Shown here one piece after another: positions 4,401 through 32,395 of a DNA stretch of 32,395 bases. Both the position numbers and the translations under genes were made by a program. Under the pieces are notes generated by a model. That model was not told the DNA's origin. It made no database searches and saw only the letters and a program-made list of their open reading frames with translations. The stretch is from Corallococcus caeni (GTDB lineage: Bacteria; Myxococcota; Myxococcia; Myxococcales; Myxococcaceae), in NCBI RefSeq assembly GCF_036245865.1, contig NZ_BTTW01000008.1, forward strand, positions 1 through 32,395, read 5' to 3'. How positions within the stretch are numbered: the first letter of the stretch is position 1; each line of letters opens with the position of its first letter.

Positions 4401-4483
4401 CCATTTGACATTTGCCAAATTTCCCGGCGCCGCCGCGCGTTACTGAAGTTTGCCCCGCCCGAGCAGCCGTCCCCGGAGACCGA

Positions 4484-8710
<4,227 letters not shown>

Positions 8711-8842: not shown

Positions 8843-13054
<4,212 letters not shown>

Positions 13055-15063: not shown

Positions 15064-15747
15064 ATGCCCCGCCCGTCCGCCCGCATTGCCATCACCGTCG
15101 CGGCCTCGCTCGTTCCCATGCTGGCCCTCGCCGGTTCGGTCTTCCTGAACGGCGTGAAGATCGACGGTGTGACGAACACGCGCTTCGAGAAGGCCACTGT
15201 CCGCATCGACGCGGAGGGGAACGTCCACATCGACGCGCCGGGGTACGCCGCCCGCGTGACGACCGTGACGCCCACGCCCGCGACGCCTTCCACCGCCACT
15301 CCGCCTGCCGCCACGCCCCCGGACGCGGGCGTCGTCGCGCAGGCTCCCGGGCCGGCTGCCCCCGCCGCGCCTCCGTCCGTGCCGGGTCGCATCACCCAGC
15401 GCTACTGGCTGGTGACGGAGCAGACGACGCCGGGCATGACGGACTTCGACATCGACGTGTACGTGAACTCGCGCTGGCTGCGTCGTTTGCGCAACAACGA
15501 GGATCAGGTGGTGGTGGACATCACCAGTCAGTTGCGTCCCGGCGCGAACGCGGTGACGCTGATTGCCCGCAAGCAGGCCACGGGGAACCGCCGCAGCACT
15601 TCGCCCGCGAACGTCTTCAAGGTGATCATCGGCGAGGGCAACGAGGGCGGCGGCAACGTGATGATTGACACGCCCCTCATCCGCTTCCAGAAGACGGCTG
15701 CGGACGCGCAGGACGCGACCGAGGAGTTCACCCTCACCACCCGCTAG
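15064..15747 (+). CDS. Secreted hypothetical protein with a Pro/Thr/Ala-rich linker
   Basis: MPRPSARIAITVAASLVPMLALAGSVF is a signal peptide with ALA|GS cleavage. The second ATG (15064) is 10 nt after AGGAGG. The first ATG (15055) sits only 1 nt after the SD. The PT-rich stretch is TVTPTPATPSTATPPAATPP. The ~100-aa C-terminal domain has no recognised family. Confidence 0.6.
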   Translation: MPRPSARIAITVAASLVPMLALAGSVFLNGVKIDGVTNTRFEKATVRIDAEGNVHIDAPGYAARVTTVTPTPATPSTATPPAATPPDAGVVAQAPGPAAPAAPPSVPGRITQRYWLVTEQTTPGMTDFDIDVYVNSRWLRRLRNNEDQVVVDITSQLRPGANAVTLIARKQATGNRRSTSPANVFKVIIGEGNEGGGNVMIDTPLIRFQKTAADAQDATEEFTLTTR

Positions 15748-15770
15748 GGTGCGCGGGAAGGGAGACGACG

Positions 15771-16235
15771 GTGTTCACCATCGACGAGCGCTACCGGGGC
15801 CTCCCCGCGAATCGCGACCAGGTGCTCGCGCTGCACCTGTCCCTCAACGCGCCGCACGTGGCGATTCCCGGCAAGCAGGCCGGGCCCGCGCAGGCCTTCG
15901 TGGTGGGGCTGCGCGGCGGGCAGGGCGCGGGCGTCTTCGTGTACCTGTACCTCGTGGAAGCGGGGGACTGCGCGGTGTACGTGTCCGGCCGGCGCATCCA
16001 GTCCGCGGACGAGCTGCGCGAGGACGAGGACGACGCGCTCGCGTTCGTGGAGTCGCTGGGCTTCATGATGGACAACGCGAACTGGCGTGCCGCGGCGCCC
16101 GCGCAGCAGGACGAGTGGCTCAAGACGCTGCCGGTGTTCTTCCGGGAGCCCACGCTCGTGCCCGCCGTGAAGGCCCGCGCCGAAGAGAAGCGCAACGTCG
16201 CCACCACCCTGGGCCGCTTCCTGGCCGCGTTCTGA
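15771..16235 (+). CDS. Hypothetical cytoplasmic protein (154 aa)
   Basis: GTG start 6 nt after GGGAG. High-GC3 codon usage consistent with a real gene. No recognisable motif. Confidence 0.55.
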   Translation: MFTIDERYRGLPANRDQVLALHLSLNAPHVAIPGKQAGPAQAFVVGLRGGQGAGVFVYLYLVEAGDCAVYVSGRRIQSADELREDEDDALAFVESLGFMMDNANWRAAAPAQQDEWLKTLPVFFREPTLVPAVKARAEEKRNVATTLGRFLAAF

Positions 16236-16258
16236 CCCTCCACCCCGGATTGGCACCC

Positions 16259-17017
16259 ATGTCCCGCATCACTTCCTCCTGCTTCCTCGCGTTCGCGCTC
16301 GCGTCGGCGGGCTGCGCGCACGTCCCCACGGAGAAGGAGCGCCGGAGCTCGGAGATCCACTACGACCTGGGCATCCAGGCCCAGCAGCACGGCCATGTGC
16401 AGGACGCGCTCGCGGAGTACCAGAAGGCGCTGGAGCAGAACCCGGACAACCCGGAGGCCCACAACGCGGTGGGGCTCCTGCTGCACCTGTCCTTCCGGCG
16501 GCTCGACGAGGCGTCGTCCCATTACGAGCAGGCGCTGAAGCTGCGGCCGTCCTTCTCCGACGCGCGCACCAACCTGGGCAACCTGCGCCTGGACCAGGGC
16601 CGCTACGACGACGCCATCAAGCTGTACGAGGAGTCGCTCAACGACATGCAGTACCGCTACGGCTTCTCCGCGCAGAACAACATGGGCTGGGCCCTCTACA
16701 AGAAGGGCGACACGGTGAACGCGCTGCAGAACATCAAGGCGGCCATCACCACCAACCCGGACTTCTGCCTGGGCTACAAGAACCTGGGTATCATCTACGA
16801 CGAGACGGGCAAGACGGAGGAGGCGTGCCGGCAGTTCGCGCACTACCGTGAGAAGTGCCCGGACGTGGCGGAGGCCTACCAGCGCGAAGGCGTTTGCCAG
16901 GCGAAGCTCGGGCGGGTGGACGAGGCGAAGGCTGCGTTCGCGGGCTGCGAGTCCAAGGCCCAGCCCAACGAGCAGGTGCTCAAGGACGACTGCCGCTCAC
17001 TGCTGGACCACCTCTAG
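16259..17017 (+). CDS. TPR-repeat outer-membrane lipoprotein (PilF/Tgl-like), Cys-rich C-terminus
   Basis: MSRITSSCFLAFALASAG|C carries a lipobox. At least 5-6 TPR units (AEYQKALEQNPDNPEAHNAVGLLL..., YEQALKLRPSFSDARTNLGNL..., GRYDDAIKLYEESL..., ALQNIKAAITTNPDF..., CRQFAHYREKCPDVAEAY...). Six Cys in the last ~70 aa. Size, lipoprotein type and position a few genes downstream of rpoC fit the Myxococcus social-motility lipoprotein Tgl, recalled from memory only. The 450-aa track ORF from 15665 is rejected. Confidence 0.75.
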   Translation: MSRITSSCFLAFALASAGCAHVPTEKERRSSEIHYDLGIQAQQHGHVQDALAEYQKALEQNPDNPEAHNAVGLLLHLSFRRLDEASSHYEQALKLRPSFSDARTNLGNLRLDQGRYDDAIKLYEESLNDMQYRYGFSAQNNMGWALYKKGDTVNALQNIKAAITTNPDFCLGYKNLGIIYDETGKTEEACRQFAHYREKCPDVAEAYQREGVCQAKLGRVDEAKAAFAGCESKAQPNEQVLKDDCRSLLDHL

Positions 17018-18204: not shown

Positions 18205-19230
18205 ATGCACGAGGCCGGACCGCTGGACGTGGTGTGTGTCGGCGAGACGCTGGTGGACTTCCTTCCCGTGTCGGGCGGCGCCACGCGCGTGCGAGACGTG
18301 GAGGCCTGGAAGCCATCGCCGGGGGGCTCGCCGGCCAACGTCTCCGTGGGGCTTGCGCGGCTGGGCTTGCGCTCGGCGATGGTGGGCGTGGTGGGCTCCG
18401 ACGAGTTCGGTCACTTCCTGCGCGACCGGCTGGCGGCGGACGGCGTGGACGTCAGCCGCCTGCGCCAGGTGGACCACGCCCGCACGGGCCTGCTGTTCGT
18501 CTCGTTGGATGCGCACGGCGAGCGCAGCTTCACGTACTTCCGGACGCGTTCGGCGGAGTTCCTGCTGGATGACTCGGACGTGGATGGCGACTTCGTGCGC
18601 CGTGCGAAGGCGCTGCACTGTGGCTCCAACTCCCTGCTCCTGCCGGAGGCGCGCGAGGCGATGGTGCGCATGCTCACCCTGGCGCGTGAGGCCGGGATGC
18701 TGGTGAGCTGTGATCCGAACCTGCGGTTGCACGTGTGGGAACGGCCGGAGGAGCTGCGCGTCCTCCTGGGCCGCATGCTGCCGCTGTGCACGGTGGTGAA
18801 GCTGTCCGAGGAGGAGATCCACTTCGCGACCGGCGAGCACTCGCCCGAGGCGGCTTTGCACGTCCTGGCCGCTCGGGGCGTGCGGCTGCCCGTGGTGACG
18901 CTGGGCCCTCGCGGCGCGGTGTTCCTCTGGCAGGGGGAGGTCCTCTCCGTACCCGCTCCCCAGGTGACGGTGGTGGACACGACGGGCGCTGGGGACGGCT
19001 TCGTGTCCGCGATGTTGACCGGGCTGGTGCGGTGGTACGGCGACGCGCGCTCGCTGGAAGGGGCGACGCGCGAGGACCTGGTCGCGCTGATGACCTTCGC
19101 CGCGGCCGTGGGGGCTCGGGTCGTGACGAAGCTGGGCGCGGTCGCGGCGCTCCCGTTGGCGTCCGAGGTCGAGGGGCTGCTGCCCACGCGGCCTTCCATG
19201 GCCGACGCCGCGCGACGCATCGCGCGCTGA
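18205..19230 (+). CDS. PfkB-family carbohydrate kinase (fructokinase/KdgK-like)
   Basis: GGSPANVSVGLARLG (N-terminal substrate lid) and VVDTTGAGDGFVSAML (ATP/anion-hole motif) are the ribokinase/PfkB hallmarks. 341 aa. Confidence 0.85.
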   Translation: MHEAGPLDVVCVGETLVDFLPVSGGATRVRDVEAWKPSPGGSPANVSVGLARLGLRSAMVGVVGSDEFGHFLRDRLAADGVDVSRLRQVDHARTGLLFVSLDAHGERSFTYFRTRSAEFLLDDSDVDGDFVRRAKALHCGSNSLLLPEAREAMVRMLTLAREAGMLVSCDPNLRLHVWERPEELRVLLGRMLPLCTVVKLSEEEIHFATGEHSPEAALHVLAARGVRLPVVTLGPRGAVFLWQGEVLSVPAPQVTVVDTTGAGDGFVSAMLTGLVRWYGDARSLEGATREDLVALMTFAAAVGARVVTKLGAVAALPLASEVEGLLPTRPSMADAARRIAR

Positions 19231-19308
19231 CGGGAAGCGCCGTGCCGGGTCAGGCTCGCGTGCTTCGCTGCGTCCGCCGTGGCCCACCATCCCACGCAGG
19301 AGGGACCG

Positions 19309-20598
19309 ATGAGTGACACCCGAGAGACCTCTTCCTCCACCCCGTCGCGGGTCCGGGGATTGGAGCAGATCGACCGGCTGTCCGTGCCCCTGCCGCACGG
19401 CACGGAGGTCACGACGCGCGTGGAGCGCGTGGCGTCCGCGGGGCGCCGGATTCCGCAGGGCGTGGTTGGCCGCGTGGTGCGCGCGCATGACGGCGGCTTC
19501 GACGTGCAGATCGTCGGCGTGGGCGAGGTGTGGTTCGCGCGCGATGAGCTGGTCCCCCGGCGCGCGGGACAGGTGCAGTTCGCCCAGCGTCGCGAGGCGG
19601 CCTGGGGCGCTCTGCGGCCCTGCGTCGTGCTGGAGACGCGCGTGGGCAGTCACGCGTGGGGGCTCGCGGACGAGCGCTCCGACGTGGACGTTCGCGGTGT
19701 CTTCGCGCTGCCCCTGCCGTGGACGCTGGGCCTGGGGCAGCCGCCGCAGGACCTGGTGAGCGCGGATGGCAGCACCACGTACTGGGAGGTCCGCAAGACG
19801 GTGGAGCAGGCGCTGCGCGCGGATCCGAACACGCTGGAGACCCTCTTCGTCCCTGGCGCGACGGCGGTGGACGAGCTGGGCACGTGGGTGCTGGAGGCGC
19901 GCGAGGCGTTCGTCTCCAAGGCCATCTTCGGCAGCTTCGGACGCTACGCCATGAGCCAGCTCGACAAGCTCACCCGTAGCCAGCGGCTGGCCGAGCACCG
20001 CGACCTGCTCCTCGCGTGGCTGTGCGAGGAGCCCACGCCGGACCTGGACGAGGTGGCCCGGCGTCTGGCCGCCGTGTCGCCCCGCGCCGCGCCCACGCCC
20101 GAGGACGGGGTGCTCGCGGCGAAGACGTATGTCAAGCAGCTCTACCGCTCGCTCTGGGATCAGGGGCTGCTCGCGGCGAACGACTTCGCGGCGCTCACGG
20201 CGTACGCGCGCGGCGGTGGCCAGCGTCCGCCGTCCGCTCGGGAGCTGCGGCCGAAGAACGCCTACAACCTGCTGCGGCTGGTGGCGCTGGCGACGGGGTG
20301 GTTGCGCGACGGCGTGCCGACCTTCGAGGCGACGGGGGCGCTGAAGGCGCGGCTGCTCGACATCAAGGGCGGACAGGTGCCTCTGGAGGACGTGCTGCGC
20401 GACGCCGAGGCGATGGCGCCGGGGCTGGAGGCCGCGCACCGCGAGAGCCGGCTGCCGGAGCACCCGGACTACGCCCGCGCGGACCGGCTGCTGCGGCGGG
20501 TAGGGGACGAGGTGGCTCGGCGCTGGGTCTTGAAGACGCCGGGACCGCTGGGCCGCGATGCGCCGGAAGCCCCGGCACTGGAAGGAGGGACGGAATGA
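19309..20598 (+). CDS. Pol-beta-superfamily nucleotidyltransferase (PF10127/RlaP-like core) with an unassigned N-terminal domain of about 110 aa
   Basis: ATG at 19309 is 4 nt after GGAGGG. NTase signature VGSHAWGLADERSDVDVRGVF (GS at 19645, DxD at 19681-19689). Downstream KNAYNLLRLVALATGWLRDG is a helix block typical of PF10127 as remembered. Stop overlaps the next ATG (ATGA). Confidence 0.65.
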   Translation: MSDTRETSSSTPSRVRGLEQIDRLSVPLPHGTEVTTRVERVASAGRRIPQGVVGRVVRAHDGGFDVQIVGVGEVWFARDELVPRRAGQVQFAQRREAAWGALRPCVVLETRVGSHAWGLADERSDVDVRGVFALPLPWTLGLGQPPQDLVSADGSTTYWEVRKTVEQALRADPNTLETLFVPGATAVDELGTWVLEAREAFVSKAIFGSFGRYAMSQLDKLTRSQRLAEHRDLLLAWLCEEPTPDLDEVARRLAAVSPRAAPTPEDGVLAAKTYVKQLYRSLWDQGLLAANDFAALTAYARGGGQRPPSARELRPKNAYNLLRLVALATGWLRDGVPTFEATGALKARLLDIKGGQVPLEDVLRDAEAMAPGLEAAHRESRLPEHPDYARADRLLRRVGDEVARRWVLKTPGPLGRDAPEAPALEGGTE

Positions 20599-21477: not shown

Positions 21478-23763
21478 ATGAGCATGCAGGGTGGCGCCGG
21501 AGAAGATCCCGACCGGGGGCGGCGCATCGGAAAGTACGAGATCCTCACCCGCCTTTCGATGGGAGGGATGGCGGAGCTGTTCCTCGCGTTCACCTCCGGC
21601 CCCGGTGGCTTCCGCAAGTTCGTGGCGGTGAAGCAGATCCTCCCCGACATCAAGAAGGACGACCAGTTCGTCAAGATGTTCCTGGACGAGGCGCGCATCA
21701 CCGCGGCCTTCTCGCACGCGAACATCGGACAGGTTTTCGACCTGGGGGAGGAGGACGGCGAGCTGTACCTCGCCATGGAGTTCCTGCCCGGCCAGAACCT
21801 GGAGCAGGTGGTGAAGATGGCGGAGCGGCGCAAGTACGCGCTGCCGCTGGGCTTCTGCGCGCGCGTCATCCGCGACACGTGCCTGGGCCTGCACTACGCC
21901 CACCACTTCATGGATCCGTCGGGCCGCCCCGTGGCGGTGGTGCACCGCGACGTGTCGCCGAAGAACGTGATGCTCACCTACGACGGCGTCGTGAAGGTGA
22001 TCGACTTCGGCATCGCCAAGGCGCGCGGCAAGCTGGGCCGCACCCAGGTCGGCACCGTGAAGGGGACCAGCGGCTACATGTCCCCGGAGCAGGTGCGCAA
22101 CAAGGACCTGGATGGCCGCAGCGACCAGTTCTCCACGGGCGTGATGTTCCACGAACTGCTGGCCGGTCAGCGCCTGTTCAACGCGCCGGGCGAGGCGGCC
22201 GTGATGATGCAGATCGTGGACGGGGAGATCCCCGCGCCGCGCTCGCTCAACCCGGCCGTGCCGGAGGCCCTGGAAGCGGTGGTGCTCAAGGCGCTGTCGC
22301 GCGACGCGGCCCAGCGCTTCGGCACCTGCCGGGAGATGGCGCGCGCCATCGAGGCCACGCTGGGCGCCGAGCTGTTCGACGAAGACCAGCTGACCGCCGT
22401 CATGGGCGAGCTCTTCGAGGAGAAGCGCCAGAAGACGCGCACCCTCCTGGAGCTGGCCAGCCGCGCCGAGGACGCCCGCGTCAGCGAGGCCGCCGGCGCG
22501 CTCCAGGCGGAGGAGGGCACGGATCAAGCCGCCTCCGCGGCCACCGCGCAGGTGAAGTCGCCGCACGCGGAAGCCCCGCAGCCGGACGTCGCCGCGTCCT
22601 TCAAGCCCACGCCCGTCCGCCGCGCCGCGGCCGAGTCCGCGACGCCCGCACCGCGCGCGACCCCGCGCTCCACCGCGGAAGCCCCAGAGGCCCGCGCCTC
22701 CCGCGTCAACACGCCGGCCGTGACTCCGCGAGCCCAACGGCCCGCGGGTTCGGACGCGGCGCCCATTCCCCGGGTCATCCGTCCTCCCGCGGACGCCGTG
22801 CGGCCCTCCAGGGCACGCCCCACCGCGCGGCCCGAACCCGCCGAAGCCCGGAGCGCGCCCCCGGCGGACTCGCTGATGGACCCGCCCAGCGATCTCCAGA
22901 CGCAGCGCTTCCGGACGCGTCCGGCGCGGGGCACCGCACGTCCGTCCCGCCAGGCGGAGGAGGAGGTGGCCGAAGCGCCTCCCTCGGCCACGCCTGCCCG
23001 CGAGGGCTCCGGCTGGGGCATGCGGCTGCTGCTGCTGCTCATCCTGGGGGGCGTGGGCTACCTGGCGACGCTCGAACCCGTGCGCCGCGTGTTCATGCCC
23101 GCGTACGACTCCGCGAAGCAGTGGGTGAAGGCGGAGCTGGATCCGGCCCCGCCCGTGGACCCCGCCGCGAGCGGGCAGTGGCCGCCGAAGCCCTCCGGTC
23201 CTCCGCCGGGCTTCGCGCAGAAGACCGAAACCCCGGCGCCCGAGAAGTCGCCGGAGGTGGAGCCGACTCCGCCCGAGCCCGTGGTGGAGGCGACGCCCGC
23301 CGACACGAAGAAGACGCCCGCGGGGAAGGGGGGCCGCAAGACGAAGCCGGCCCCCAGCGCTCCGGCCGCCACTCCCACCACGCCCGTGGTGGCGGCGACG
23401 GCCGAGCCGCGCCCCGCGAAGCCCGAGCCGTCGGAGCGGGCCCCGGAGCCCGTCACCACCGTCACGCAGGCCGAGAACCCGGAGGTGCTGGACACCTCCA
23501 CCTCGAAGGGCGCGGCGAAGGCGGGCCTGGGGTGGCTGACGCTTTACACGGTGCCAAAGAACGCGGCGGTGTTCGACGGCGCCACGCAGCTGGGCACGTC
23601 CCCGCTGATCAAGTTCCCCCTGCCCATCGGGACGTACCGGCTGCGCGTGGTGGACCCGCAGGACCCCGGCGGAACGAGCAAGCTGTTGTCCGCTCCCATT
23701 CGTCCGGGCGAGGTGACGAAGCTGCAGATTCGACTGGTCGACCTCCCGGCCTACGCGGACTGA
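21478..23763 (+). CDS. Ser/Thr protein kinase with a Pro/Ala-rich linker, single TM helix and C-terminal PEGA domain
   Basis: Hanks motifs GKYEILTRLSMGGMAELF (Gly loop), VAVK, HRDVSPKNVML, DFGIAK, GTSGYMSPE. TM helix is GWGMRLLLLLILGGVGYLATL (~23019-23080). PEGA-like C-terminus is GWLTLYTVPKNAAVFDGATQLGTSPLIKFPLPIGTYRLRV. Confidence 0.9.
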   Translation: MSMQGGAGEDPDRGRRIGKYEILTRLSMGGMAELFLAFTSGPGGFRKFVAVKQILPDIKKDDQFVKMFLDEARITAAFSHANIGQVFDLGEEDGELYLAMEFLPGQNLEQVVKMAERRKYALPLGFCARVIRDTCLGLHYAHHFMDPSGRPVAVVHRDVSPKNVMLTYDGVVKVIDFGIAKARGKLGRTQVGTVKGTSGYMSPEQVRNKDLDGRSDQFSTGVMFHELLAGQRLFNAPGEAAVMMQIVDGEIPAPRSLNPAVPEALEAVVLKALSRDAAQRFGTCREMARAIEATLGAELFDEDQLTAVMGELFEEKRQKTRTLLELASRAEDARVSEAAGALQAEEGTDQAASAATAQVKSPHAEAPQPDVAASFKPTPVRRAAAESATPAPRATPRSTAEAPEARASRVNTPAVTPRAQRPAGSDAAPIPRVIRPPADAVRPSRARPTARPEPAEARSAPPADSLMDPPSDLQTQRFRTRPARGTARPSRQAEEEVAEAPPSATPAREGSGWGMRLLLLLILGGVGYLATLEPVRRVFMPAYDSAKQWVKAELDPAPPVDPAASGQWPPKPSGPPPGFAQKTETPAPEKSPEVEPTPPEPVVEATPADTKKTPAGKGGRKTKPAPSAPAATPTTPVVAATAEPRPAKPEPSERAPEPVTTVTQAENPEVLDTSTSKGAAKAGLGWLTLYTVPKNAAVFDGATQLGTSPLIKFPLPIGTYRLRVVDPQDPGGTSKLLSAPIRPGEVTKLQIRLVDLPAYAD

Positions 23764-23852: not shown

Positions 23853-24845
23853 ATGTATTTCCAGGACCTCATCCTCACGCTCCAGAAGCACTGGGCCGAC
23901 CAGGGATGCATCGTCACCCAGTCGTACGACACGGAAGTCGGCGCGGGCACGATGGCCCCCTACACGTTCCTGCACGCGCTCGGTCCCGAGCCCTGGAACG
24001 TCGCCTACGTGCAGCCCTCGCGACGCCCCGCCGACGGCCGCTTCGGTGAGAACCCGAACCGGCTGTTCCAGCACCACCAGTTCCAGGTCATCCTCAAGCC
24101 CGCGCCCAAGAACGTCCAGGAGCTGTACCTGGAGTCGCTGCGGAAGGTTGGCCTGGATCCGCTGGAGCACGACATCCGCTTCGTGGAGGACGACTGGGAG
24201 TCGCCCACGCTGGGGGCCTGGGGCCTGGGCTGGGAGGTGTGGTGCGATGGCGAGGAGGTGACGCAGTTCACCTACTTCCAGCAGTGCGGCGGCTTCGACT
24301 GCCGCCCCGTGGCCGCGGAGCTGACGTACGGCCTGGAGCGCCTGGCCAGGTACCTCCAGAACGTGGAGAGCGTCTTCGACATCGAGTGGGTCAAGGGCGT
24401 GAAGTACCGCGAGGTCTTCCACGCGAACGAGGTGGAGATGAGCAAGTACGCCCTCCACGAGTCCGACCCGCAGATGCTCTTCACGCTGTTCGACGCGTAC
24501 GAGAAGGAGTGCAAGCGGCTCATCGAGCGCCACCTGCCGCTGCCCGCGTACGACTACGCGCTGAAGTGCTCGCACACGTTCAACCTGCTGGACGCGCGCG
24601 GCGCCATCTCCGTCACCGAGCGCGCCAACTTCATCAAGCGCGTGCGTGACAACGCGCGCCTGTGCGCGGAGGGATACCTCCAGATGCGCGAGCGGCTGGG
24701 CTACCCGCTGACGAAGACGCCGTGGACGGTGGGCGAGCAGCCGGCGGTGCTGGAGGGCAAGCCCGCCAGCGACTACTGGAAGACGGTGCAGCTCAACAAG
24801 CCGGTGGAGAAGAAGGAGAAGGCGGAGGTGTCCCGTGGCGCGTGA
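23853..24845 (+). CDS. glyQ: Glycine--tRNA ligase alpha subunit
   Basis: [83 protein letters not shown] is essentially invariant GlyQ. Confidence 0.95.
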
Positions 24846-26946
24846 TCTGCTGCTGGAGGTCGGCGCCGAGGAGATCCCGGCGTCGTTCATCGTGCCCGCG
24901 CTGGAGGACCTGAAGCGCGTGCTCACCGAGCGCATGGCCGACGCCCGCCTGAAGCACGGCGAGGTGCGCACGTTCGGAACGCCGCGCCGGCTGGCCATCT
25001 GGGTCCGCGACGTGGCGGACGCGGGAGAGGACATCACGAAGGAGGTGCTGGGGCCCAGCGCCAAGGCCGCCTTCGACGCGCAGGGCAAGCCCACCAAGGC
25101 GGCGGAGAAGTTCGCCGAGGGGCTCAAGCTGACCGTGGACGCGCTCGGCCGCACGACGACGGCCAAGGGCGAGTACGTGTCGGCGCGCGTGGAGGAGAAG
25201 GGACGCCCGGCGGACGCCATCCTCCAGGATGCGCTGCACGCCGCGGTGCACGGCATCAACTTCAAGAAGTCCATGCGCTGGGGGGACGTGGACACGTCCT
25301 TCGCGCGCCCGGTGCAGTGGCTGGTGGCGCTGCTGGGTGACACGGAGCTGGCGGTGGTGCTCGGCGACGTGAAGAGCGGACGGACGACCTACGGCCACCG
25401 CTTCCTCGCGCCGGGGCCCATCCCGCTGAAGGCGCCCGCGGACTACGAGTCCACGCTGGAGAAGGCGCACGTGCTGGCGGACCTCGGCAAGCGCCGCGCG
25501 TCGCTCGTGGAGAAGCTGCACGCCGCGGCGAAGGGCGCCGGCGGGCAGCTCATGGAGGACGAGGGACTGGTGGACCAGGTGACGAACCTGGTGGAGCTGC
25601 CGAACCCCGTGGTGGGCAGCTTCGACCCGCGCCACCTGGACCTGCCGCCGGAGGTGCTGGTGCAGGAGATGAAGAGCCACCAGCGCTACTTCTCGCTGCT
25701 GGACGCGCAGGGGAAGCTGCTGCCGCGCTTCATCGCCGTGTCCAACACGCCGGTGCGCGACGCGCAGCTGTCCCTGCGTGGGTACGAGCGCGTGCTGCGC
25801 GCGCGGCTCGCGGACGGGCGCTTCTTCTTCGACGAGGACCGCCGCACGCCGCTGGCCGACCGCGTGGAGAAGCTGGGCCGCGTGGTGTGGCAGGGCCAGC
25901 TGGGCACGTACCTGGAGAAGGTGGAGCGCTTCCGTGCGCTGGCGGGCTTCCTGGCCCAGGCCACGGGCAGGGCAGGGGAGGCGGCCACGGTGGAGCGCGC
26001 CGCCACGCTGTCCAAGGCGGACCTCGTCACCGGCATGGTGGGCGAGTTCCCGGAGCTCCAGGGCGTGATGGGCCGCGAGTACGCGAAGGCGGGCGGCGAG
26101 CCCGACGCGGTGGCGCTGGCCATCTTCGAGCACTACCTGCCCCGCGGCGCCGAGGACGCGCTGCCGTCGCAGGACGCGGGCGCGCTCATCGGCCTGGCGG
26201 ACCGGCTGGACTCGCTGTGCGGCATCTTCGCCATTGGCAAGGCGCCGTCGGGCGCGGCGGATCCGTTCGCGCTGCGCCGCGCGTGCCTGTCCATCATCCG
26301 CATCGTGCTGGGGCGCGGCTACCGCTTCAGCCTTTCGGCCGCGGTAGACGAGGCGCTGCGCCTCCTGGCCCCGAAGCTGGCGAACGTGAAGCGCAAGCCG
26401 GGCGAGGCGGCCCCGCGTGAGCAGGTGCTGGAGTTCTTCCGCGGCCGCCTCAAGGCGCTGTGGGGCGAGCAGCACCGCACGGACGTCGTGGAGGCCGTGC
26501 TGGCCGTGGGCTTCGACGACCTCGTCGCGGCGAAGAAGCGCCTGGAGGCCCTGAGCCTGCTCGTGGGCCACTCGGACTTCCAGCCGCTGGCGGCGGCGTT
26601 CAAGCGCGTGGTCAACATCGTGGAGAAGCAGGGCAAGGACGTGGCGGGCGGGCAGACCAACCCGCAGCGCTTCACGGACGAGCCGGAGAAGAACCTCCAC
26701 ACCGCCTTCACCCAGGCCCGCGACAAGGTGGGCGAGCGCGTGCGCGCGGACGACTTCGCCGGGGCGCTCAAGGAGATCACCGGCCTGAAGCCCGCCGTGG
26801 ACACCTTCTTCGACAAGGTGATGGTGATGGCCGAGGACAAGGACCTGCGGGAGAACCGCATCCGGTTCCTCACGGAGATTGGCGCCCTGTTCAACCAGGT
26901 GGCGGACTTTTCCAAGATCCAGGCCGAAACCGCTGCGGCGGCCTGA
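24835..26946 (+). CDS. glyS: Glycine--tRNA ligase beta subunit
   Basis: GTG start overlaps the glyQ 3' end by 11 nt. (M)[29 protein letters not shown]... is the GlyS N-terminus. 703 aa. Confidence 0.95.
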
Positions 26947-27115
26947 GGCCCGGTCGCCCGTTCACCGCTGGCGCGTGCCCGCTTTCCCGCCAGGGGAGCG
27001 GCGCACGCCGTCCGTGCGGGGGGGAGGGATGTCGGGAGGAGGGCGGCCGGGAATAGTGACAGCCCTATTCAGTTGCCCGGCGCAGGGCGTCGTTCCTACA
27101 CTCCGCCCCCCTCTG

Positions 27116-28645
27116 ATGCGCCTCCATTTCCTGACCCCCGCGCTGCTGCTCCTCGGAGCGTGTTCGCTCGAATCCGATCCGAACCCGCCTCCATCCACCC
27201 GCTTCGTGTACCCCAGCGGGGTGGCGTTCTGGCGCCCTCCGACGGCGGGAGGGCCCTCGGCGAGCAACGGCTATCTCTTCGTCGCGAACGCCAACTTCGA
27301 CAACTGCTACGACTCCGGTTCGGTCGTGGCACTGAACCTGGACGCACTGAGCACGCAGGTGGACGGGCAGCCGGTGACGGTGCCCCACCTGGGCAGTGTG
27401 CTCCCGGAGTCCGCGCTCGCCTTCGAGGACCTGGCGTCCGCGGACGAGTCGCTCGTGCAGATCCGCAGCTTCGCGGGTGAGCTGGGCCTGTGGGTGAACC
27501 CGGCCAGCGGGCTGCCGCGCCTGTTCGTGCCGTCGCGCGCGGAGGGCAACGACCTGCACGCGGTGGACGTGAGCCTGGATGGCAACGGCGCGCCGGTGCT
27601 CAACTGCGTGCAGGGCGGCGTGGACTGCCGCGACGGCGCGCTGTCGCTCACCGACGACATCCCGGCGTCCTTGAGCGAGGCGGGCCGGCCGGGCCTGCCC
27701 CGTGCCCCGTCGCCCATCGGCGTGACGGTGGATGCGGCGAGCGGCACGCTGTACGTGACGCACTCCGAGGCGGCGGACTCGCCCGCGAAGTCCAGCACCA
27801 ACTTCGAGAACTACCTGGCCACGGTGAAGCTGGACAACCCCACGCGCGACACGCTGGGCTTCATCCCGCTGTCGCCCGACGGCTACCTCTACGGCGGCTC
27901 GGACTCCGTGACGGTGGGCGCAGGCTACCTCTACGTGACGGGCCGCAACTTCGTGGCCGGCATCAACGGCACGGTGGCCGCCAACTTCGTGCTGCGGCTG
28001 GTGGACAAGAACGAGCCCGGCATCATCCTGGAGCCCGCACTGCAGTCGGTCTTCAGCATCCGCGAGGCGCGCGCGGCGCGCGTGGTGCCCCGGCCGGTGA
28101 CGGCGGCGGAGCGGGCGGCGCGTCCGAACTTCGTGCGCGAGCGGCTCTACATGCTGGCGCGCGGCCCGGACACGCTGCTCACCCTCGACTTCGAATACGA
28201 CGCGGTGCCGGGCACCGCCGCCACCCAGCCCTTCTTCCGCGTGGTCTCCGCGGTGCCCCTGCCGGACGGCGTGAGCGACATGCAGCTCATCGAGCGGACG
28301 CCGGGCACGTCCAACGCGGACACCAACATCCTCGCGGTGACGAGCACGGGCGACAGCGCGGTGTCCCTCTACGACGAGGCGCTCGGGCAGGTCGTGGCGC
28401 AGGTGCCGCTCGTCAACAACCTCAACCAGACCAGCAACCCGTCGCAGGCCTTCGGGCTCGCGGTGGACAACCCGGCCGGGACGAACGCGGCGCGGCTGTT
28501 CGTGACCAACTTCGGTGACGGACAGGTGTCCATCGTGGACATCCCCGACCTCGCGCGCCCCCAGGACGCGAGGCTGGTGGCGAGGCTGGGCACGCAGCAA
28601 CAGCGCGATCCGAACCAGGGCACCAGCGTGTGCCAGGAGAACTGA
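27116..28645 (+). CDS. YVTN-family beta-propeller lipoprotein
   Basis: MRLHFLTPALLLLGA|CSLES carries a lipobox. Repeated YVTN-type beta-propeller blades: YLFVANANFDN...GSVVALNL, RLFVPSRAEGNDLHAVDVS, TLYVTHSEA, YLYVTGRNF, ARLFVTNFGDGQVSIVDI. The track start at 26879 is rejected. Confidence 0.75.
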   Translation: MRLHFLTPALLLLGACSLESDPNPPPSTRFVYPSGVAFWRPPTAGGPSASNGYLFVANANFDNCYDSGSVVALNLDALSTQVDGQPVTVPHLGSVLPESALAFEDLASADESLVQIRSFAGELGLWVNPASGLPRLFVPSRAEGNDLHAVDVSLDGNGAPVLNCVQGGVDCRDGALSLTDDIPASLSEAGRPGLPRAPSPIGVTVDAASGTLYVTHSEAADSPAKSSTNFENYLATVKLDNPTRDTLGFIPLSPDGYLYGGSDSVTVGAGYLYVTGRNFVAGINGTVAANFVLRLVDKNEPGIILEPALQSVFSIREARAARVVPRPVTAAERAARPNFVRERLYMLARGPDTLLTLDFEYDAVPGTAATQPFFRVVSAVPLPDGVSDMQLIERTPGTSNADTNILAVTSTGDSAVSLYDEALGQVVAQVPLVNNLNQTSNPSQAFGLAVDNPAGTNAARLFVTNFGDGQVSIVDIPDLARPQDARLVARLGTQQQRDPNQGTSVCQEN

Positions 28646-28647
28646 CC

Positions 28648-30801
28648 TTGAAGCGCGGCTTTCTTGCGGCCCTGTTGCTGAGCGGCGCGAGCCTCGCGCT
28701 CGCCTGCTCCGACACCACCTCCACCGCGGGCGCCGCCGGCCTGTCCGGCACGTACGACGTGGTGCTCTCCAACCAGCTCGTCTTCGTCACCTCCCAGGAC
28801 CGGGATGAGCTGCGCGTGCTGGACCTGACGCGCTCGCCGCGTGAGTTCCTCCCCGCGCCCAACCCGCTGGAGCCCCTGTCCATCCCCGTCATCGCGCGGC
28901 CCGACTCGCTCACCCGCGACGTGGGCTACGACGCCACCGGCAACGACGTGTCCGGGCCGTACATCTACGCGCGCAGCTCCGGTGGCCGCGGCATCTCCGT
29001 GGTGGCCGCGGACCGCGCGCGCCTCAACGAGGTGACGCGCCTGGCGACCGGCCAGCTCATCACCGCCTTCGCCGCGCATGCCCCGGTGGCGGACGGCGCG
29101 CCGAGCGTCCTGTACTACGCGCTCCAGACGCGCCCGGCGGCCGCCGAGCAGCTCTGCGGCCCCTTCGGCGGCGGCGTGGTGATGCGCCAGGACCTGCCCG
29201 GCCCGGAGGGCTTCGACGCGGCCGCGCTGCCGCCCGCGCTGCCCGTGTTCTGCCTCAAGCCGGCGGACACCGTGCTGTCCATGATCACGCTGCCCGCGCG
29301 GGCCAACGTGACGGACTCGCTGGTGCTCGCCATCCGCAACGTGTCCGGCACCAGCCGGCTGGTGCGCGCCGCCGCGGACGGGGCCTCCGTGGAGATTCCG
29401 TACAAGCGGCCGCGTCCGGTCCCCTACGCGGTGCCCACGTACACGGACCTCATCGACATCCCGGCGCGGCTCGTGGCCACGCACGCCAGCTTCAAGGTGT
29501 CGGACACGGTGACCGTGCCCGCGGGCCGCTTCGTGTACGTGGTGCTGGATGAGCTGACGTGCAACTCGTCGGACTGCGAGGGCGTCATCGCGCTCGACAA
29601 CGGGCCGGATCCCCTGGCGCCCTCCACGGCGCCGGCGCTCGCCCGGGACATCACCGGCGCGCCCATGCTGACCCTGAAGCCGTCCGCGGGCCTGCCCACG
29701 GGCCTCACGCTGCGCACGGGCCTGGAGGTCCGCGAGCTGCTGTCGGACGGCGTGGCCTACACCACCCCCGTGCCGCTGCTGGGCATCGTGCCGTCCTCCA
29801 GCGGGGAGATCACCCTGTTCCGCGCGGACGAGCGGCGCGCGTTCAACCTGGACCGCGACCCCAAGACGGGCCCGCTGAAGGCGTCCGTGTCCGCGGAGCT
29901 TCGCGACAGCAACGAGGCCGTGCGCGCGGATCAGTTCCAGGCCATCACCGTGTCGGAACCGGGCTGCCCCCAGGTGCAGGACGCGACCAACGCCACCGCG
30001 TTCCTCTGCAGCGGGACGGTGCCCAACGGCACCTACCGCTTCGTCTTCCAGGGCGCGCTGCCTGGCCTGACCAGCCTCACGCGCGACCTGACCGTGGAGG
30101 ATGCTCCGATCCTCATCGAGACCACCCTGGCGACGTCGCGAGGCGTGGTGCCCGGGGACTCCATCGTGCTGGCGAACAACGCGGGCGCCTGCGCGACGGC
30201 CATCCCCATCCTCCGCCTGGAGGACCAGGGCAACGGCCTCACGCGGCTCTACCCGGACCTGTCCGACCCGGCCATCGCCACCGCGGTGGAGCCCTGCGCC
30301 TCGTACCCGCTCTTCTCCGTGCGGGCCGGTCCGAACGTGAAGCCCTACCTGCTCTATGCCGGCGCGGAGAGCAGCGGTTCTTTCATCCAGCGGCTGGATG
30401 TGAACGAGCCGTACACCGTCTCCAGCTTCCTGGACTACTACGCCCACCCGGACGACTTCGACCTGGGGTTGGACCCGCCCAAGTCACCCACCACCTACGT
30501 GCCCGCGCCGCTGACGCTCACCATGACCGCGACCATCGGTGCGCAGAGCCGACTGGTGGCCGGTGACCGCTACGTGGTGACGCTGCTGCCGCGCTTCCGC
30601 CGCTTCGTCTTCGGGGTGGACACCGGCTCGTCGAGCAACCTGGCGGTCTACACCCTGCCTGCTTCCGTGGTGGCCACGGACGTGGAGGGCTCCAGCCTGG
30701 CCTTCATCGCCTACCCCTCCGCGGACGGCATCCTCCAGGTGGCCCTGGAGTCCATCAGCGACAACGCGAAGAACCTCCAGTATCTCCGGGCCTTCCAGTA
30801 A
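28648..30801 (+). CDS. Large lipoprotein of unknown function (717 aa), coupled to the upstream beta-propeller lipoprotein
   Basis: TTG start 8 nt after AGGAGA and 2 nt after the upstream stop gives MKRGFLAALLLSGASLALA|CSDTT, a textbook lipoprotein signal. The in-frame GTG at 28630 is the alternative. One N-terminal YVTN-like blade (QLVFVTSQDRDELRVLDL). The rest is unassigned. Multiple Cys pairs. Confidence 0.7.
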   Translation: MKRGFLAALLLSGASLALACSDTTSTAGAAGLSGTYDVVLSNQLVFVTSQDRDELRVLDLTRSPREFLPAPNPLEPLSIPVIARPDSLTRDVGYDATGNDVSGPYIYARSSGGRGISVVAADRARLNEVTRLATGQLITAFAAHAPVADGAPSVLYYALQTRPAAAEQLCGPFGGGVVMRQDLPGPEGFDAAALPPALPVFCLKPADTVLSMITLPARANVTDSLVLAIRNVSGTSRLVRAAADGASVEIPYKRPRPVPYAVPTYTDLIDIPARLVATHASFKVSDTVTVPAGRFVYVVLDELTCNSSDCEGVIALDNGPDPLAPSTAPALARDITGAPMLTLKPSAGLPTGLTLRTGLEVRELLSDGVAYTTPVPLLGIVPSSSGEITLFRADERRAFNLDRDPKTGPLKASVSAELRDSNEAVRADQFQAITVSEPGCPQVQDATNATAFLCSGTVPNGTYRFVFQGALPGLTSLTRDLTVEDAPILIETTLATSRGVVPGDSIVLANNAGACATAIPILRLEDQGNGLTRLYPDLSDPAIATAVEPCASYPLFSVRAGPNVKPYLLYAGAESSGSFIQRLDVNEPYTVSSFLDYYAHPDDFDLGLDPPKSPTTYVPAPLTLTMTATIGAQSRLVAGDRYVVTLLPRFRRFVFGVDTGSSSNLAVYTLPASVVATDVEGSSLAFIAYPSADGILQVALESISDNAKNLQYLRAFQ

Positions 30802-30864
30802 CTGGGCGCGCCCGGCCGGCTCTGCTATCGTCCTCTACGTCCAGCATTTCCCGAGCCAAGACCG

Positions 30865-31722
30865 ATGATCGATCAGAACTCCCGTCCCGCACGCAAGGTC
30901 GGCATCGCCGAGCACCTGTGGGAGACGTACGAAGAGATGGCCCAGCAGATGGGGTCGGATCGCGACGCGCTCATCAACCAGGCGCTGTTCATGTTCGCGC
31001 GTCTCAACGGCTTCATCGACGTGAAGACGAAGGGAGAGCCCGCGGTGGCGGCGGTGCCGTCACCGGCGCCTTCCGCGCGCGCGGCCTCCGCGCCCCCCCC
31101 GGCCGCCGCGGCCAAGGGCGCGCCGCCGGTGCTGGCGCCCGCGCCGGCGTCGTCGCGCCCCGCCGCGCGCAACGGGGCGGAGGAGCGTCCTTCCTCCAAC
31201 GGACTGGACAATGATCCGGTGCGCCGCGAGGTCGCCGAGCGCGTCCTGGAGACGGCCGCGGAGCTGGAGCGGCTCATCAAGGGCAAGAACGAGCCGCCCC
31301 CGCCCTCCGCGGACGACATGATCGAGGACGAGGAGGAGCCCCTGCCGGAGCAGGAGGAGCCGCCGCTCGACGACATGCAGGACGAGCCTCCGGAAGAGGC
31401 CGAAGAAGAAGAGGCCATGGAGGAGCCGGACGAGGAGGAGGGCGCCGCGCTCTACCTCGTCACGGAGTCCGGCGAGCAGGAGAAGATCGTCAAGGACCGC
31501 TACGTCATCGGCCGCGGCAAGCACTGCGACTTCGTCATCAACTCCGGCAAGGTGTCGCGCGAGCACGCCGTCATCGCCCGCGACGGCGGCGACTTCTACA
31601 TCGAGGACCTCGGCTCCTCGAACGGGACCTGGTTCAACAAGCAGCGCATCAAGCGCCGCAAGGTTGAGGACGGGGACGAGTACTTCATCTGCAGCGAGAA
31701 GATCCGCCTCGTCATCCATTGA
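30865..31722 (+). CDS. Ribbon-helix-helix + FHA-domain protein with a poly-acidic linker
   Basis: N-terminus RKVGIAEHLWETYEEMAQQMGSDRDALINQALFMFARL has the RHH (CopG/Arc) pattern. Ala/Pro-rich spacer. Acidic run is DDMIEDEEEPLPEQEEPPLDDMQDEPPEEAEEEEAMEEPDEEEG. C-terminal FHA is YVIGRGKHCDFVINSGKVSREHAVIARDGGDFYIEDLGSSNGTWFNKQRI. Confidence 0.8.
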   Translation: MIDQNSRPARKVGIAEHLWETYEEMAQQMGSDRDALINQALFMFARLNGFIDVKTKGEPAVAAVPSPAPSARAASAPPPAAAAKGAPPVLAPAPASSRPAARNGAEERPSSNGLDNDPVRREVAERVLETAAELERLIKGKNEPPPPSADDMIEDEEEPLPEQEEPPLDDMQDEPPEEAEEEEAMEEPDEEEGAALYLVTESGEQEKIVKDRYVIGRGKHCDFVINSGKVSREHAVIARDGGDFYIEDLGSSNGTWFNKQRIKRRKVEDGDEYFICSEKIRLVIH

Positions 31723-31808
31723 GGAACGGGATGACGCAGGGCCCCACGGTGCGATGGTCTTGTTCAGGAATTGACGGGCTCCAGGCCTCCATTGTTTGAT
31801 GGGGGTCG

Positions 31809-31829
31809 CCTGCTCCCCATGGGAGCAGG
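31809..31829 (+). promoter_or_regulatory. Perfect 9-bp palindrome CCTGCTCCC-cat-GGGAGCAGG covering the SD of the prepilin-peptidase gene
   Basis: Exact reverse-complement arms read from the sequence. GGGAG inside the 3' arm is the only SD-like element before the ATG at 31836. A candidate TTGACG-N18-TTTGAT promoter lies at 31771-31800. Confidence 0.4.
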
Positions 31830-31835
31830 TGCCGA

Positions 31836-32372
31836 ATGACACCTGTTCAGCTCGCGCTGTGGACGATTCTGGGAGTGGCCCTGGTGATTGCGGTGGTGAC
31901 CGACGTGCTGCGCCGGCTCATCCCGAACGCCGTGACCTATCCGCTCATCGTGCTGGGGCTCGGGGTGCGCGCGGTGTCCGAGGGGTGGGGCGGGCTGGAG
32001 TCGGGGCTGGTGAGCGGGCTTCTGGCGGGCGCGGGACTCGCGCTGCTGCTGGTGCCGGGTGCGCTGCGCGGGCGCATGGGGTGGGGTGACGTCAAGCTGA
32101 TGGCGGGCGTGGGCTGCGTGCTGGGCTTTCCCACGGTGCTCGCGGCGGCGGCCTTCATCTCGCTGGTGGGCGCGCTGCAGGCAGTCGTCACACTGCTGTG
32201 GCAGGGGGCTGTCTGGGACACGCTGGCGGCGGTGGCCCGTCGCTGGGCGGTGCGGATGAAATTCATGCGCGAGGCAACCTCGCCCGCTCCCGTGCGACAC
32301 ATCCCCTACGGCGTCTCCATCGCGCTCGGGACTTTCTGGGCCATGTGGTGGCAGCAACAACATCTGGGATAG
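31836..32372 (+). CDS. cpaA: A24-family prepilin peptidase, CpaA/TadV-like (Flp/Tad-type pilus)
   Basis: 178 aa polytopic membrane protein. The two catalytic Asp contexts are VIAVVTDVLRRLIPN and RMGWGDVKLMAGVG. The short size fits TadV/CpaA rather than PilD. Confidence 0.75.
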   Translation: MTPVQLALWTILGVALVIAVVTDVLRRLIPNAVTYPLIVLGLGVRAVSEGWGGLESGLVSGLLAGAGLALLLVPGALRGRMGWGDVKLMAGVGCVLGFPTVLAAAAFISLVGALQAVVTLLWQGAVWDTLAAVARRWAVRMKFMREATSPAPVRHIPYGVSIALGTFWAMWWQQQHLG

Positions 32373-32395
32373 CGCGCCGTTGCGTCCGGGCGCGC

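Follow-up and report, generated by a model that had tools for sequence, protein, structure and literature searches.

A translationally coupled pair of predicted outer-membrane propeller lipoproteins between glyS and the Kil genes of Corallococcus caeni

Kil cluster 1 of Myxococcus xanthus has been described as MXAN_3102-3108, comprising 3102, 3103, the FHA-domain protein 3104, KilA (3105), KilC, KilF and KilD (Seef et al. 2021, eLife, PMC8460266). Its first two genes encode what that study describes as two predicted outer-membrane (OM) lipoproteins with function unassigned, which carry the InterPro labels 'cytochrome cd1 nitrite reductase' and 'YWTD' (PMC8460266). Cluster 1 encodes no other OM lipoproteins, and the literature is split on whether these two belong to Kil. 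A 2026 DiscOperon preprint predicts the operons glyQ-glyS-RS15035-RS15040, a monocistronic FHA gene and kilA-C-F-D-polA; it leaves the pair out of Kil and so disputes the published assignment. The matter bears on how Myxococcus recognizes prey and assembles Kil upon contact, and on the OM side of the machine, which is incompletely defined. Here we describe the orthologous gene pair of Corallococcus caeni, which lies at 27116-30801 of contig NZ_BTTW01000008.1 (RefSeq assembly GCF_036245865.1). The window that we analyzed comprises positions 1 to 32,395 of the forward strand of this contig, 32,395 nucleotides (nt) in all. The putative Kil assignment of the pair is already published and the pair is not a new system; the value added here is structural and comparative, and consists of fold predictions for the two proteins, revised gene starts, a promoter-like element open to mutation or mapping, and a locus arrangement without kil genes that argues for a function of the pair's own. 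The reading that we favor, and to which we give an even chance, is that the pair forms a constitutive, non-enzymatic OM lipoprotein complex that is not an obligate part of Kil.

The OM accessories of Tad/Flp systems (the TadD pilotin, RcpB and RcpC/CpaB) are, like the pair, OM-associated, and their genes neighbor those of a Tad secretin and ATPase. Neither TadD, a lipoprotein with TPR repeats, nor RcpC/CpaB, which has a SAF domain, is a beta-propeller, and no sequence or fold similarity of the pair to TadD or RcpC/CpaB was seen in the Pfam scan or among the structure matches. Escherichia coli YncE (PDB 3vgz), a soluble periplasmic protein reported to bind single-stranded DNA, and Leptospira Lp49 (PDB 3bws) are propellers that share 10-16% identity with the pair; the product of gene 1 is about 190 amino acids (aa) longer than YncE and that of gene 2 about 400 aa longer. 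To our knowledge the physiological roles of YncE and Lp49 are not established, and hence no function can be transferred from the fold match. Bacteroides BtuG (PDB 8blw) is a lipid-anchored seven-bladed OM propeller that caps BtuB.

The pair and the ribosome-binding signal of its second gene are as follows.
27116-28645, plus strand: gene 1, a 509-aa lipoprotein, ortholog of MXAN_3102 (ATG at 27116, TGA at 28643-28645).
28648-30801, plus strand: gene 2, a 717-aa lipoprotein, ortholog of MXAN_3103 (TTG at 28648, TAA at 30799-30801).
28635-28639, plus strand: Shine-Dalgarno sequence AGGAG of gene 2, 8 nt 5' of its TTG and within the final codons of gene 1.

The pair is orthologous to MXAN_3102/3103 (MXAN_RS15035/15040). 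The M. xanthus genes stand in the same order among the same neighbors and both products are predicted OM lipoproteins, whose two InterPro labels we take to denote propeller-type domains, consistent with the folds predicted here; they differ from the Corallococcus proteins in sequence, with 48% identity for gene 1 and 41% for gene 2. The gene 1 product begins with MRLHFLTPALLLLGA-C and the gene 2 product with (M)KRGFLAALLLSGASLALA-C, the final C being the lipobox cysteine. Only 2 nt separate the two genes. The start codon of gene 2 is TTG, GTG or ATG at a conserved position in all orthologs compared, and GCCAGGAG is kept 7-8 nt 5' of it throughout Myxococcaceae/Archangiaceae. An alternative start at the upstream GTG (28630) was excluded by an in-frame stop in two orthologs (L030, L033). 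In each of the 75 loci with sufficient flank, the two genes either abut or overlap (by 4 nt in L077). The gene model of the initial annotation, with two reading frames 2 nt apart and the second one's Shine-Dalgarno sequence inside the first, was thus right, as was its view of the genes as a coupled pair. Because of the 2-nt gap with its internal Shine-Dalgarno sequence and the abutting or overlapping of the two genes in every locus, translational coupling is a firm prediction from sequence. A comparison of the two families with HHalign gave no detectable paralogy except in the signal peptide and first strand.

The start of the M. xanthus gene deserves correction. The MXAN_3102 call (538 aa, starting at the glyS stop; 8406-10022 in L001/L002) is probably too long, because a promoter-like block lies inside it and the signal peptide begins at the conserved ATG about 135 nt further 3'. 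From that ATG, MXAN_3102 would have about 490 aa.

Both lipoboxes that had been read from the window sequence are real. They are LLGA-C in gene 1 (Cys16, codon 27161-27163) and LALA-C in gene 2 (Cys20, codon 28705-28707), and the cysteine is kept in 45/45 gene 1 homologs and 47/47 gene 2 homologs. The mature N-termini are CSLESDP (gene 1) and CSDTTST (gene 2); neither has Lys at +2 or Ala at +7, and +2 Lys occurs in none of the orthologs listed. In M. xanthus +2 Lys is the sorting signal of inner-membrane lipoproteins and +7 Ala that of extracellular matrix (ECM) lipoproteins (Bhat 2011). MXAN3103 was detected by liquid chromatography-tandem mass spectrometry (LC-MS/MS) in the purified OM fraction with 3 peptides, and MXAN3102 is not among the OM-fraction proteins listed (Bhat 2011). 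Given the invariant lipobox cysteine, the lack of +2 Lys and +7 Ala, and the presence of MXAN3103 in purified OM, both proteins are most likely OM lipoproteins, predicted to be sorted by the Lol pathway. The extracytoplasmic pattern of paired cysteines that had been proposed is also seen across the families, in 44-47 sequences each. In gene 2 the pairs C305/C310 and C515/C550 are kept in 46-47 of 47 sequences; in gene 1, C164/C171 is kept in 44-45 of 45, and C506 in all 45. From conservation and predicted secondary structure, which give the pairing and the position of the inserts, these cysteines would form disulfides in both proteins.

Gene 1 is confidently predicted to be a YncE-like seven-bladed beta-propeller (AlphaFold2 with the family alignment: predicted local distance difference test, pLDDT, 88.3; predicted template modeling score, pTM, 0.89), in agreement with the YVTN-type propeller expected from its repeats. 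Gene 2 is confidently predicted to be a seven-bladed beta-propeller with large additional beta-rich regions (pLDDT 83.4, pTM 0.80). Sequence families added little: a Pfam scan of both proteins gave nothing at E<=0.1, an NCBIfam scan only the sub-threshold TIGR03118 (13.8 bits vs a cut-off of 79.95), a profile search of both families against PDB sequences nothing below E 0.2, and a PADLOC scan of both proteins nothing usable. NCBI names the orthologs 'YncE family protein' despite the lack of a match to a curated model.

These models bear on two further explanations of what the proteins do. One or both could be a propeller-fold enzyme, for instance a lactonase or a lyase, whose substrate would come from the envelope or from prey. 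In favor of this, a VTHxExADSP-like motif is conserved in gene 1, with H216 nearly invariant; yet identity to enzymes of this kind is only 12-15%, no signature or profile of an enzyme family was found for either protein in Pfam, NCBIfam or the PDB sequence profiles, and the top structural matches (YncE, Lp49 for gene 1, and WD40 scaffolds) are non-enzymatic. Structure prediction thus yielded no obvious enzyme, and we consider this explanation very improbable. Propellers of this sort are usually binding platforms. Alternatively, the pair could be surface lipoproteins that capture a ligand in the manner of BtuG, for nutrient uptake or for binding an extracellular polymer. In a Foldseek search against the PDB the best match of gene 2 is BtuG1 in its complex with BtuB (8blw_B, E 6.9e-7), the matches also include 1l0q, an archaeal S-layer YVTN propeller with a PKD domain, and the best match of gene 1, YncE, is a soluble ligand-binding propeller; moreover, the proteins are acidic, disulfide-rich and fast-evolving. 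The TM-scores to BtuG1 are low, however (0.22-0.24), the Foldseek matches are only to the generic propeller fold, and, unlike BtuG, the pair has no TonB-dependent receptor or transporter gene linked to it in any locus examined. Ligand capture of this type is therefore quite improbable in our judgment.

The region 5' of gene 1 carries signals of a separate transcript. The elements concerned, and the spacer before the FHA gene, are listed below.
27049-27056, plus strand: conserved upstream box GGGAATAG, nearly invariant in 13 aligned genomes, about 17 nt 5' of the -35-like element.
27073-27078, plus strand: -35-like hexamer TTGCCC of the gene 1 promoter-like block, within which AGTTGCCCG is nearly invariant across genera.
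27096-27111, plus strand: invariant 16-mer CTACACTCCGCCCCCC, containing the -10-like TACACT (27097-27102) and a C-run that ends 4 nt 5' of the ATG.
30802-30864, plus strand: 63-nt spacer between gene 2 and the FHA gene, with a -35-like CTGGGC (30802-30807) and an extended -10-like TGCTATCGT (30823-30831).

In the window the spacer between glyS and gene 1 has 169 nt, and across the 13 Myxococcaceae/Archangiaceae genomes aligned it cannot be aligned apart from the block just 5' of the ATG. Between the -35-like and -10-like elements the window has 18 nt, and most other genomes have 17 nt. The 16-mer CTACACTCCGCCCCCC is exact in about 50 Myxococcaceae/Archangiaceae loci or species and has 1-2 mismatches in three more; there is essentially one copy per locus, always directly 5' of gene 1, and it is absent from the deep-branching loci L054-L078. 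The block is non-coding and constrained as nucleic acid, because it shows no changes of synonymous type and a 1-nt indel occurs 5' of the 16-mer. It plausibly acts as the gene 1 promoter in Myxococcaceae/Archangiaceae, and the ATG, 13 nt past the -10-like hexamer, suggests that the mRNA leader of gene 1 is very short. The weak promoter and independent transcript that had been proposed for this spacer are thus made plausible, within this clade, by the conservation of the 16-mer, although a scan for consensus sigma-70 promoters called none, with the TTGCCC block below threshold. The cluster of G-runs noted in the same proposal fared less well: the G-run is not conserved, and the conserved part is the -35/-10-like block with its C-run (27073-27111). 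Pairing of the G-run with the C-run as a structured leader or terminator was rejected, since the fold of the spacer is no more stable than that of shuffled sequences (z -0.44). No terminator was called between glyS and the FHA gene, and an Rfam scan of 26500-32395 had no matches. As a separate matter, one genome (L014, Corallococcus sp. RDP092CA) has about 1.4 kb of extra sequence (6947-8514) between glyS and the gene 1 promoter-like block, vs about 170 nt in other Corallococcus.

Two other arrangements complete the transcriptional picture. In the deep lineages L056, L058, L065 and L077 the start of gene 1 abuts the glyS stop, which suggests that the pair is transcribed there with glyQS. Downstream of gene 2, the spacer before the FHA gene is near-constant in length in almost all loci (mostly 57-70 nt, usually 63), and its CTG(C/T)TAT is kept even in deep metagenome-assembled genomes (MAGs). 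These features point to an ancient promoter that belongs to the FHA gene itself, in agreement with the monocistronic FHA gene predicted in the preprint.

The genes that flank the pair in the window are these.
23853-26946, plus strand: glyQ (23853-24845) and glyS (24835-26946), with 91% and 86% tblastn identity to M. xanthus.
30865-31722, plus strand: FHA-domain protein of 285 aa, ortholog of MXAN_3104 (Pfam FHA, E 1.2e-19), always 3' of gene 2.
31836-32372, plus strand: short prepilin peptidase of 178 aa, ortholog of KilA (MXAN_3105; Pfam Peptidase_A24), 76% identical to M. xanthus KilA and in the same position.

The KilA ortholog is the first true Kil gene of cluster 1, which bears out the suggestion in the initial annotation that the Kil locus lies nearby. 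In M. xanthus the order is glyQ, glyS, a 538-aa reading frame (3102), a 694-aa reading frame (3103), FHA, Peptidase_A24 (kilA), secretin (kilC), FHA-T2SSE ATPase (kilF), FHA-FHA-TPR (kilD) and polA. The label RHH, previously given to the FHA protein, has no Pfam support, as a test of its N-terminus found no RHH match.

The distribution of the pair was followed in 74 loci from species-representative genomes and in 6 more reached by look-ups of individual homologs. A word-indexed search gave about 135 homologs per protein (clusters at 90% identity), and a profile of gene 2 retrieved 398 clusters at 50% identity. The gene 2 product matches one Corallococcus caeni protein at 100% identity. The named homologs are all from Myxococcota, namely Corallococcus, Myxococcus, Pyxidicoccus, Stigmatella, Hyalangium, Archangium and MAGs, and all homologs and loci recovered share the position linked to glyS. 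Among loci with enough flank, gene 1 is the immediate 5' neighbor of gene 2 in 75/75 and glyS that of gene 1 in 71/71; kilC is found 3' of the pair in 46 loci. In the sequences compared, the link of the pair to glyS is therefore no looser than its link to kil. KilC is 87-88% and KilF 88-89% identical between Corallococcus and M. xanthus, and with 41-48% identity the pair evolves much faster than the Kil core.

In one clade the pair stands without kil genes beside it. In five deep-branching MAG species (L072-L076) the order is glyQS, a small TPR reading frame, gene 1, gene 2, FHA and then polA, and the locus, to which this finding refers, has no kilACFD. A neighbor-joining tree of GlyS (midpoint-rooted, without outgroup) places them beside L063, which has kilCFD, and for this reason it is simpler to suppose that kil was lost or relocated while the pair stayed. 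With KilF of L063 as query, the contexts examined (P0403, P0397) showed the usual synteny, and among the 120 matches listed there was none on a contig with the length of those of L072-L076.

The same clade has other peculiarities. The extra reading frame between glyS and gene 1 has 155 aa (8040-8507 in L072); its N-terminus is hydrophobic and signal-like, and its matches to TPR are weak. Gene 2 is larger there, with about 895 aa (9968-12655 in L072), and only its N-terminal third can be aligned to the Corallococcus protein. In three other deep lineages (L060, L063 and L065), the FHA gene is followed directly by kilC-kilF-kilD with no kilA at the locus, a pattern that suggests either later recruitment of kilA to the cluster or its loss in these loci.

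From these data we infer that the two proteins share a function and probably form a complex, given their tight coupling in every genome. The two-gene unit would yield two lipoproteins that the Lol pathway sorts to the OM, each of them a seven-bladed propeller stabilized by conserved disulfides, and the two most likely assemble as a heteromeric, non-enzymatic module for binding or scaffolding, anchored in the OM. In Myxococcaceae/Archangiaceae the unit would be expressed from its own sigma-70-like promoter, possibly with read-through from glyQS, and in deeper lineages it would be transcribed as part of the glyQS operon. The pair is ancient and single-copy in the Myxococcus/Archangium branch of Myxococcota, and would be an envelope module that adjoins the kil genes without depending on them. 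Its separate promoter-like elements, the predicted co-transcription with glyQS, the deep loci in which gene 1 abuts glyS, the clade without kil at the locus, the lack of counterparts in other Kil/Tad clusters and the faster evolution all favor a function independent of Kil.

The competing explanation is that the pair is an OM accessory of the Kil Tad-like predation machine, which we hold as a tentative and somewhat unlikely alternative. The two proteins could be a partner for assembly, docking or stabilization of the short KilC without N0 domain, in place of TadD and RcpB, or they could be an outward sensor of prey contact or an adhesin that feeds FHA/kinase signaling. Several facts point this way and weigh against our preferred reading. 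The block gene 1-gene 2-FHA-kilA/C/F/D, in which the pair is immediately 5' of the kil genes, is conserved in 46 loci across wide, family-level divergence, and this may mean a functional link; in L072-L076 the kil genes may sit elsewhere in the genome. Seef et al. (2021, PMC8460266) list the pair in Kil cluster 1 and treat it as a member, and they report that the cluster 1 genes are expressed together under starvation. Kil has neither of the Tad OM accessories TadD and RcpB, and its secretin has no N0 domain (PMC8460266), which leaves room for new OM partners and makes a nearby OM lipoprotein a natural candidate substitute. KilC (MXAN3106) and KilB (MXAN4652) were found in the same purified OM as MXAN3103 (Bhat 2011). 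Fast evolution would also suit a surface protein that meets prey, and a Ser/Thr kinase is conserved 5' of glyQ in 45 of the 79 sequences searched.

Against a role as Kil accessory stand the separate promoter-like elements before gene 1 and before the FHA gene, and the preprint, which predicts co-transcription with glyQS and leaves both genes out of Kil. In L072-L076 polA comes directly after the pair and the FHA gene, and the locus has no kilACFD. Homologs were found only in Myxococcota, and the homolog table of Seef et al. lists no counterpart of the pair in the Kil/Tad clusters of Bdellovibrio, Bradymonas and Caulobacter. In the literature on Kil we found no deletion or fusion of MXAN_3102/3103 and no mutant phenotype reported. 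Position is the sole tie of the pair to Kil and is weak evidence, since glyQS and polA share it equally. The proposal in the initial annotation that the pair belongs to a Tad/Kil machine is therefore borne out as to the locus, which is the published Kil cluster 1; membership is not established, and the link to glyS is at least as tight. Its own check, whether the pair occurs away from Tad/Kil genes, has a divided answer: one clade has no kil at the locus, but kilC lies downstream in 46 loci. Its alternative, an independent cell-surface module, is currently better supported than Kil membership.

A more elaborate version of the Kil explanation makes the pair the missing OM module of the machine: a two-propeller complex would dock or gate the N0-less KilC or sense prey, and the FHA protein and the Ser/Thr kinase would link it to the assembly of Kil upon contact. 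On this view kil would have moved elsewhere in the clade that lacks it at the locus, or the pair would have kept a second function there. We regard this version as unlikely. If loss of the pair impaired predation, the two proteins would represent a new class of Tad accessory; if predation stayed intact, cluster 1 should start at or after the FHA gene.

The kinase just mentioned has 761 aa and is encoded directly 5' of glyQ (21478-23763, plus strand). Sequences with a homolog include M. xanthus, most Myxococcaceae/Archangiaceae and L077; the homolog is 5' of glyQ wherever its position was checked, and it is absent from the deepest lineages. As the adjacent Kil cluster holds many FHA proteins, which bind phosphothreonine, the kinase is a candidate signaling partner of this FHA-rich cluster.

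Some of the loci reflect the quality of the assemblies. In Cystobacter fuscus NCWS (L061, 9932-11974) gene 2 is in four fragments with an early stop; an error-prone assembly is more likely than a pseudogene, because GlyS and KilD are also fragmented there. Two loci of Myxococcus type come from entries with other names, L024 (BNCN01000010.1, 'Comamonas sp. KCTC 72670') and L022 (JAFAAN010000147.1, 'Proteobacteria bacterium'). Their GlyQ is 98-99% identical to that of M. xanthus, and these assemblies look mislabeled or contaminated.

Further upstream, the window encodes a protein with a Pfam match to ribosomal protein L1 (2134-2919) and two very long reading frames (4412-8710 and 8843-13054), presumably rpoB and rpoC by size and position only. 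These are followed by a 450-aa TPR protein (15665-17017), a PfkB-family kinase (18205-19230) and an RlaP-family nucleotidyltransferase (19279-20598).

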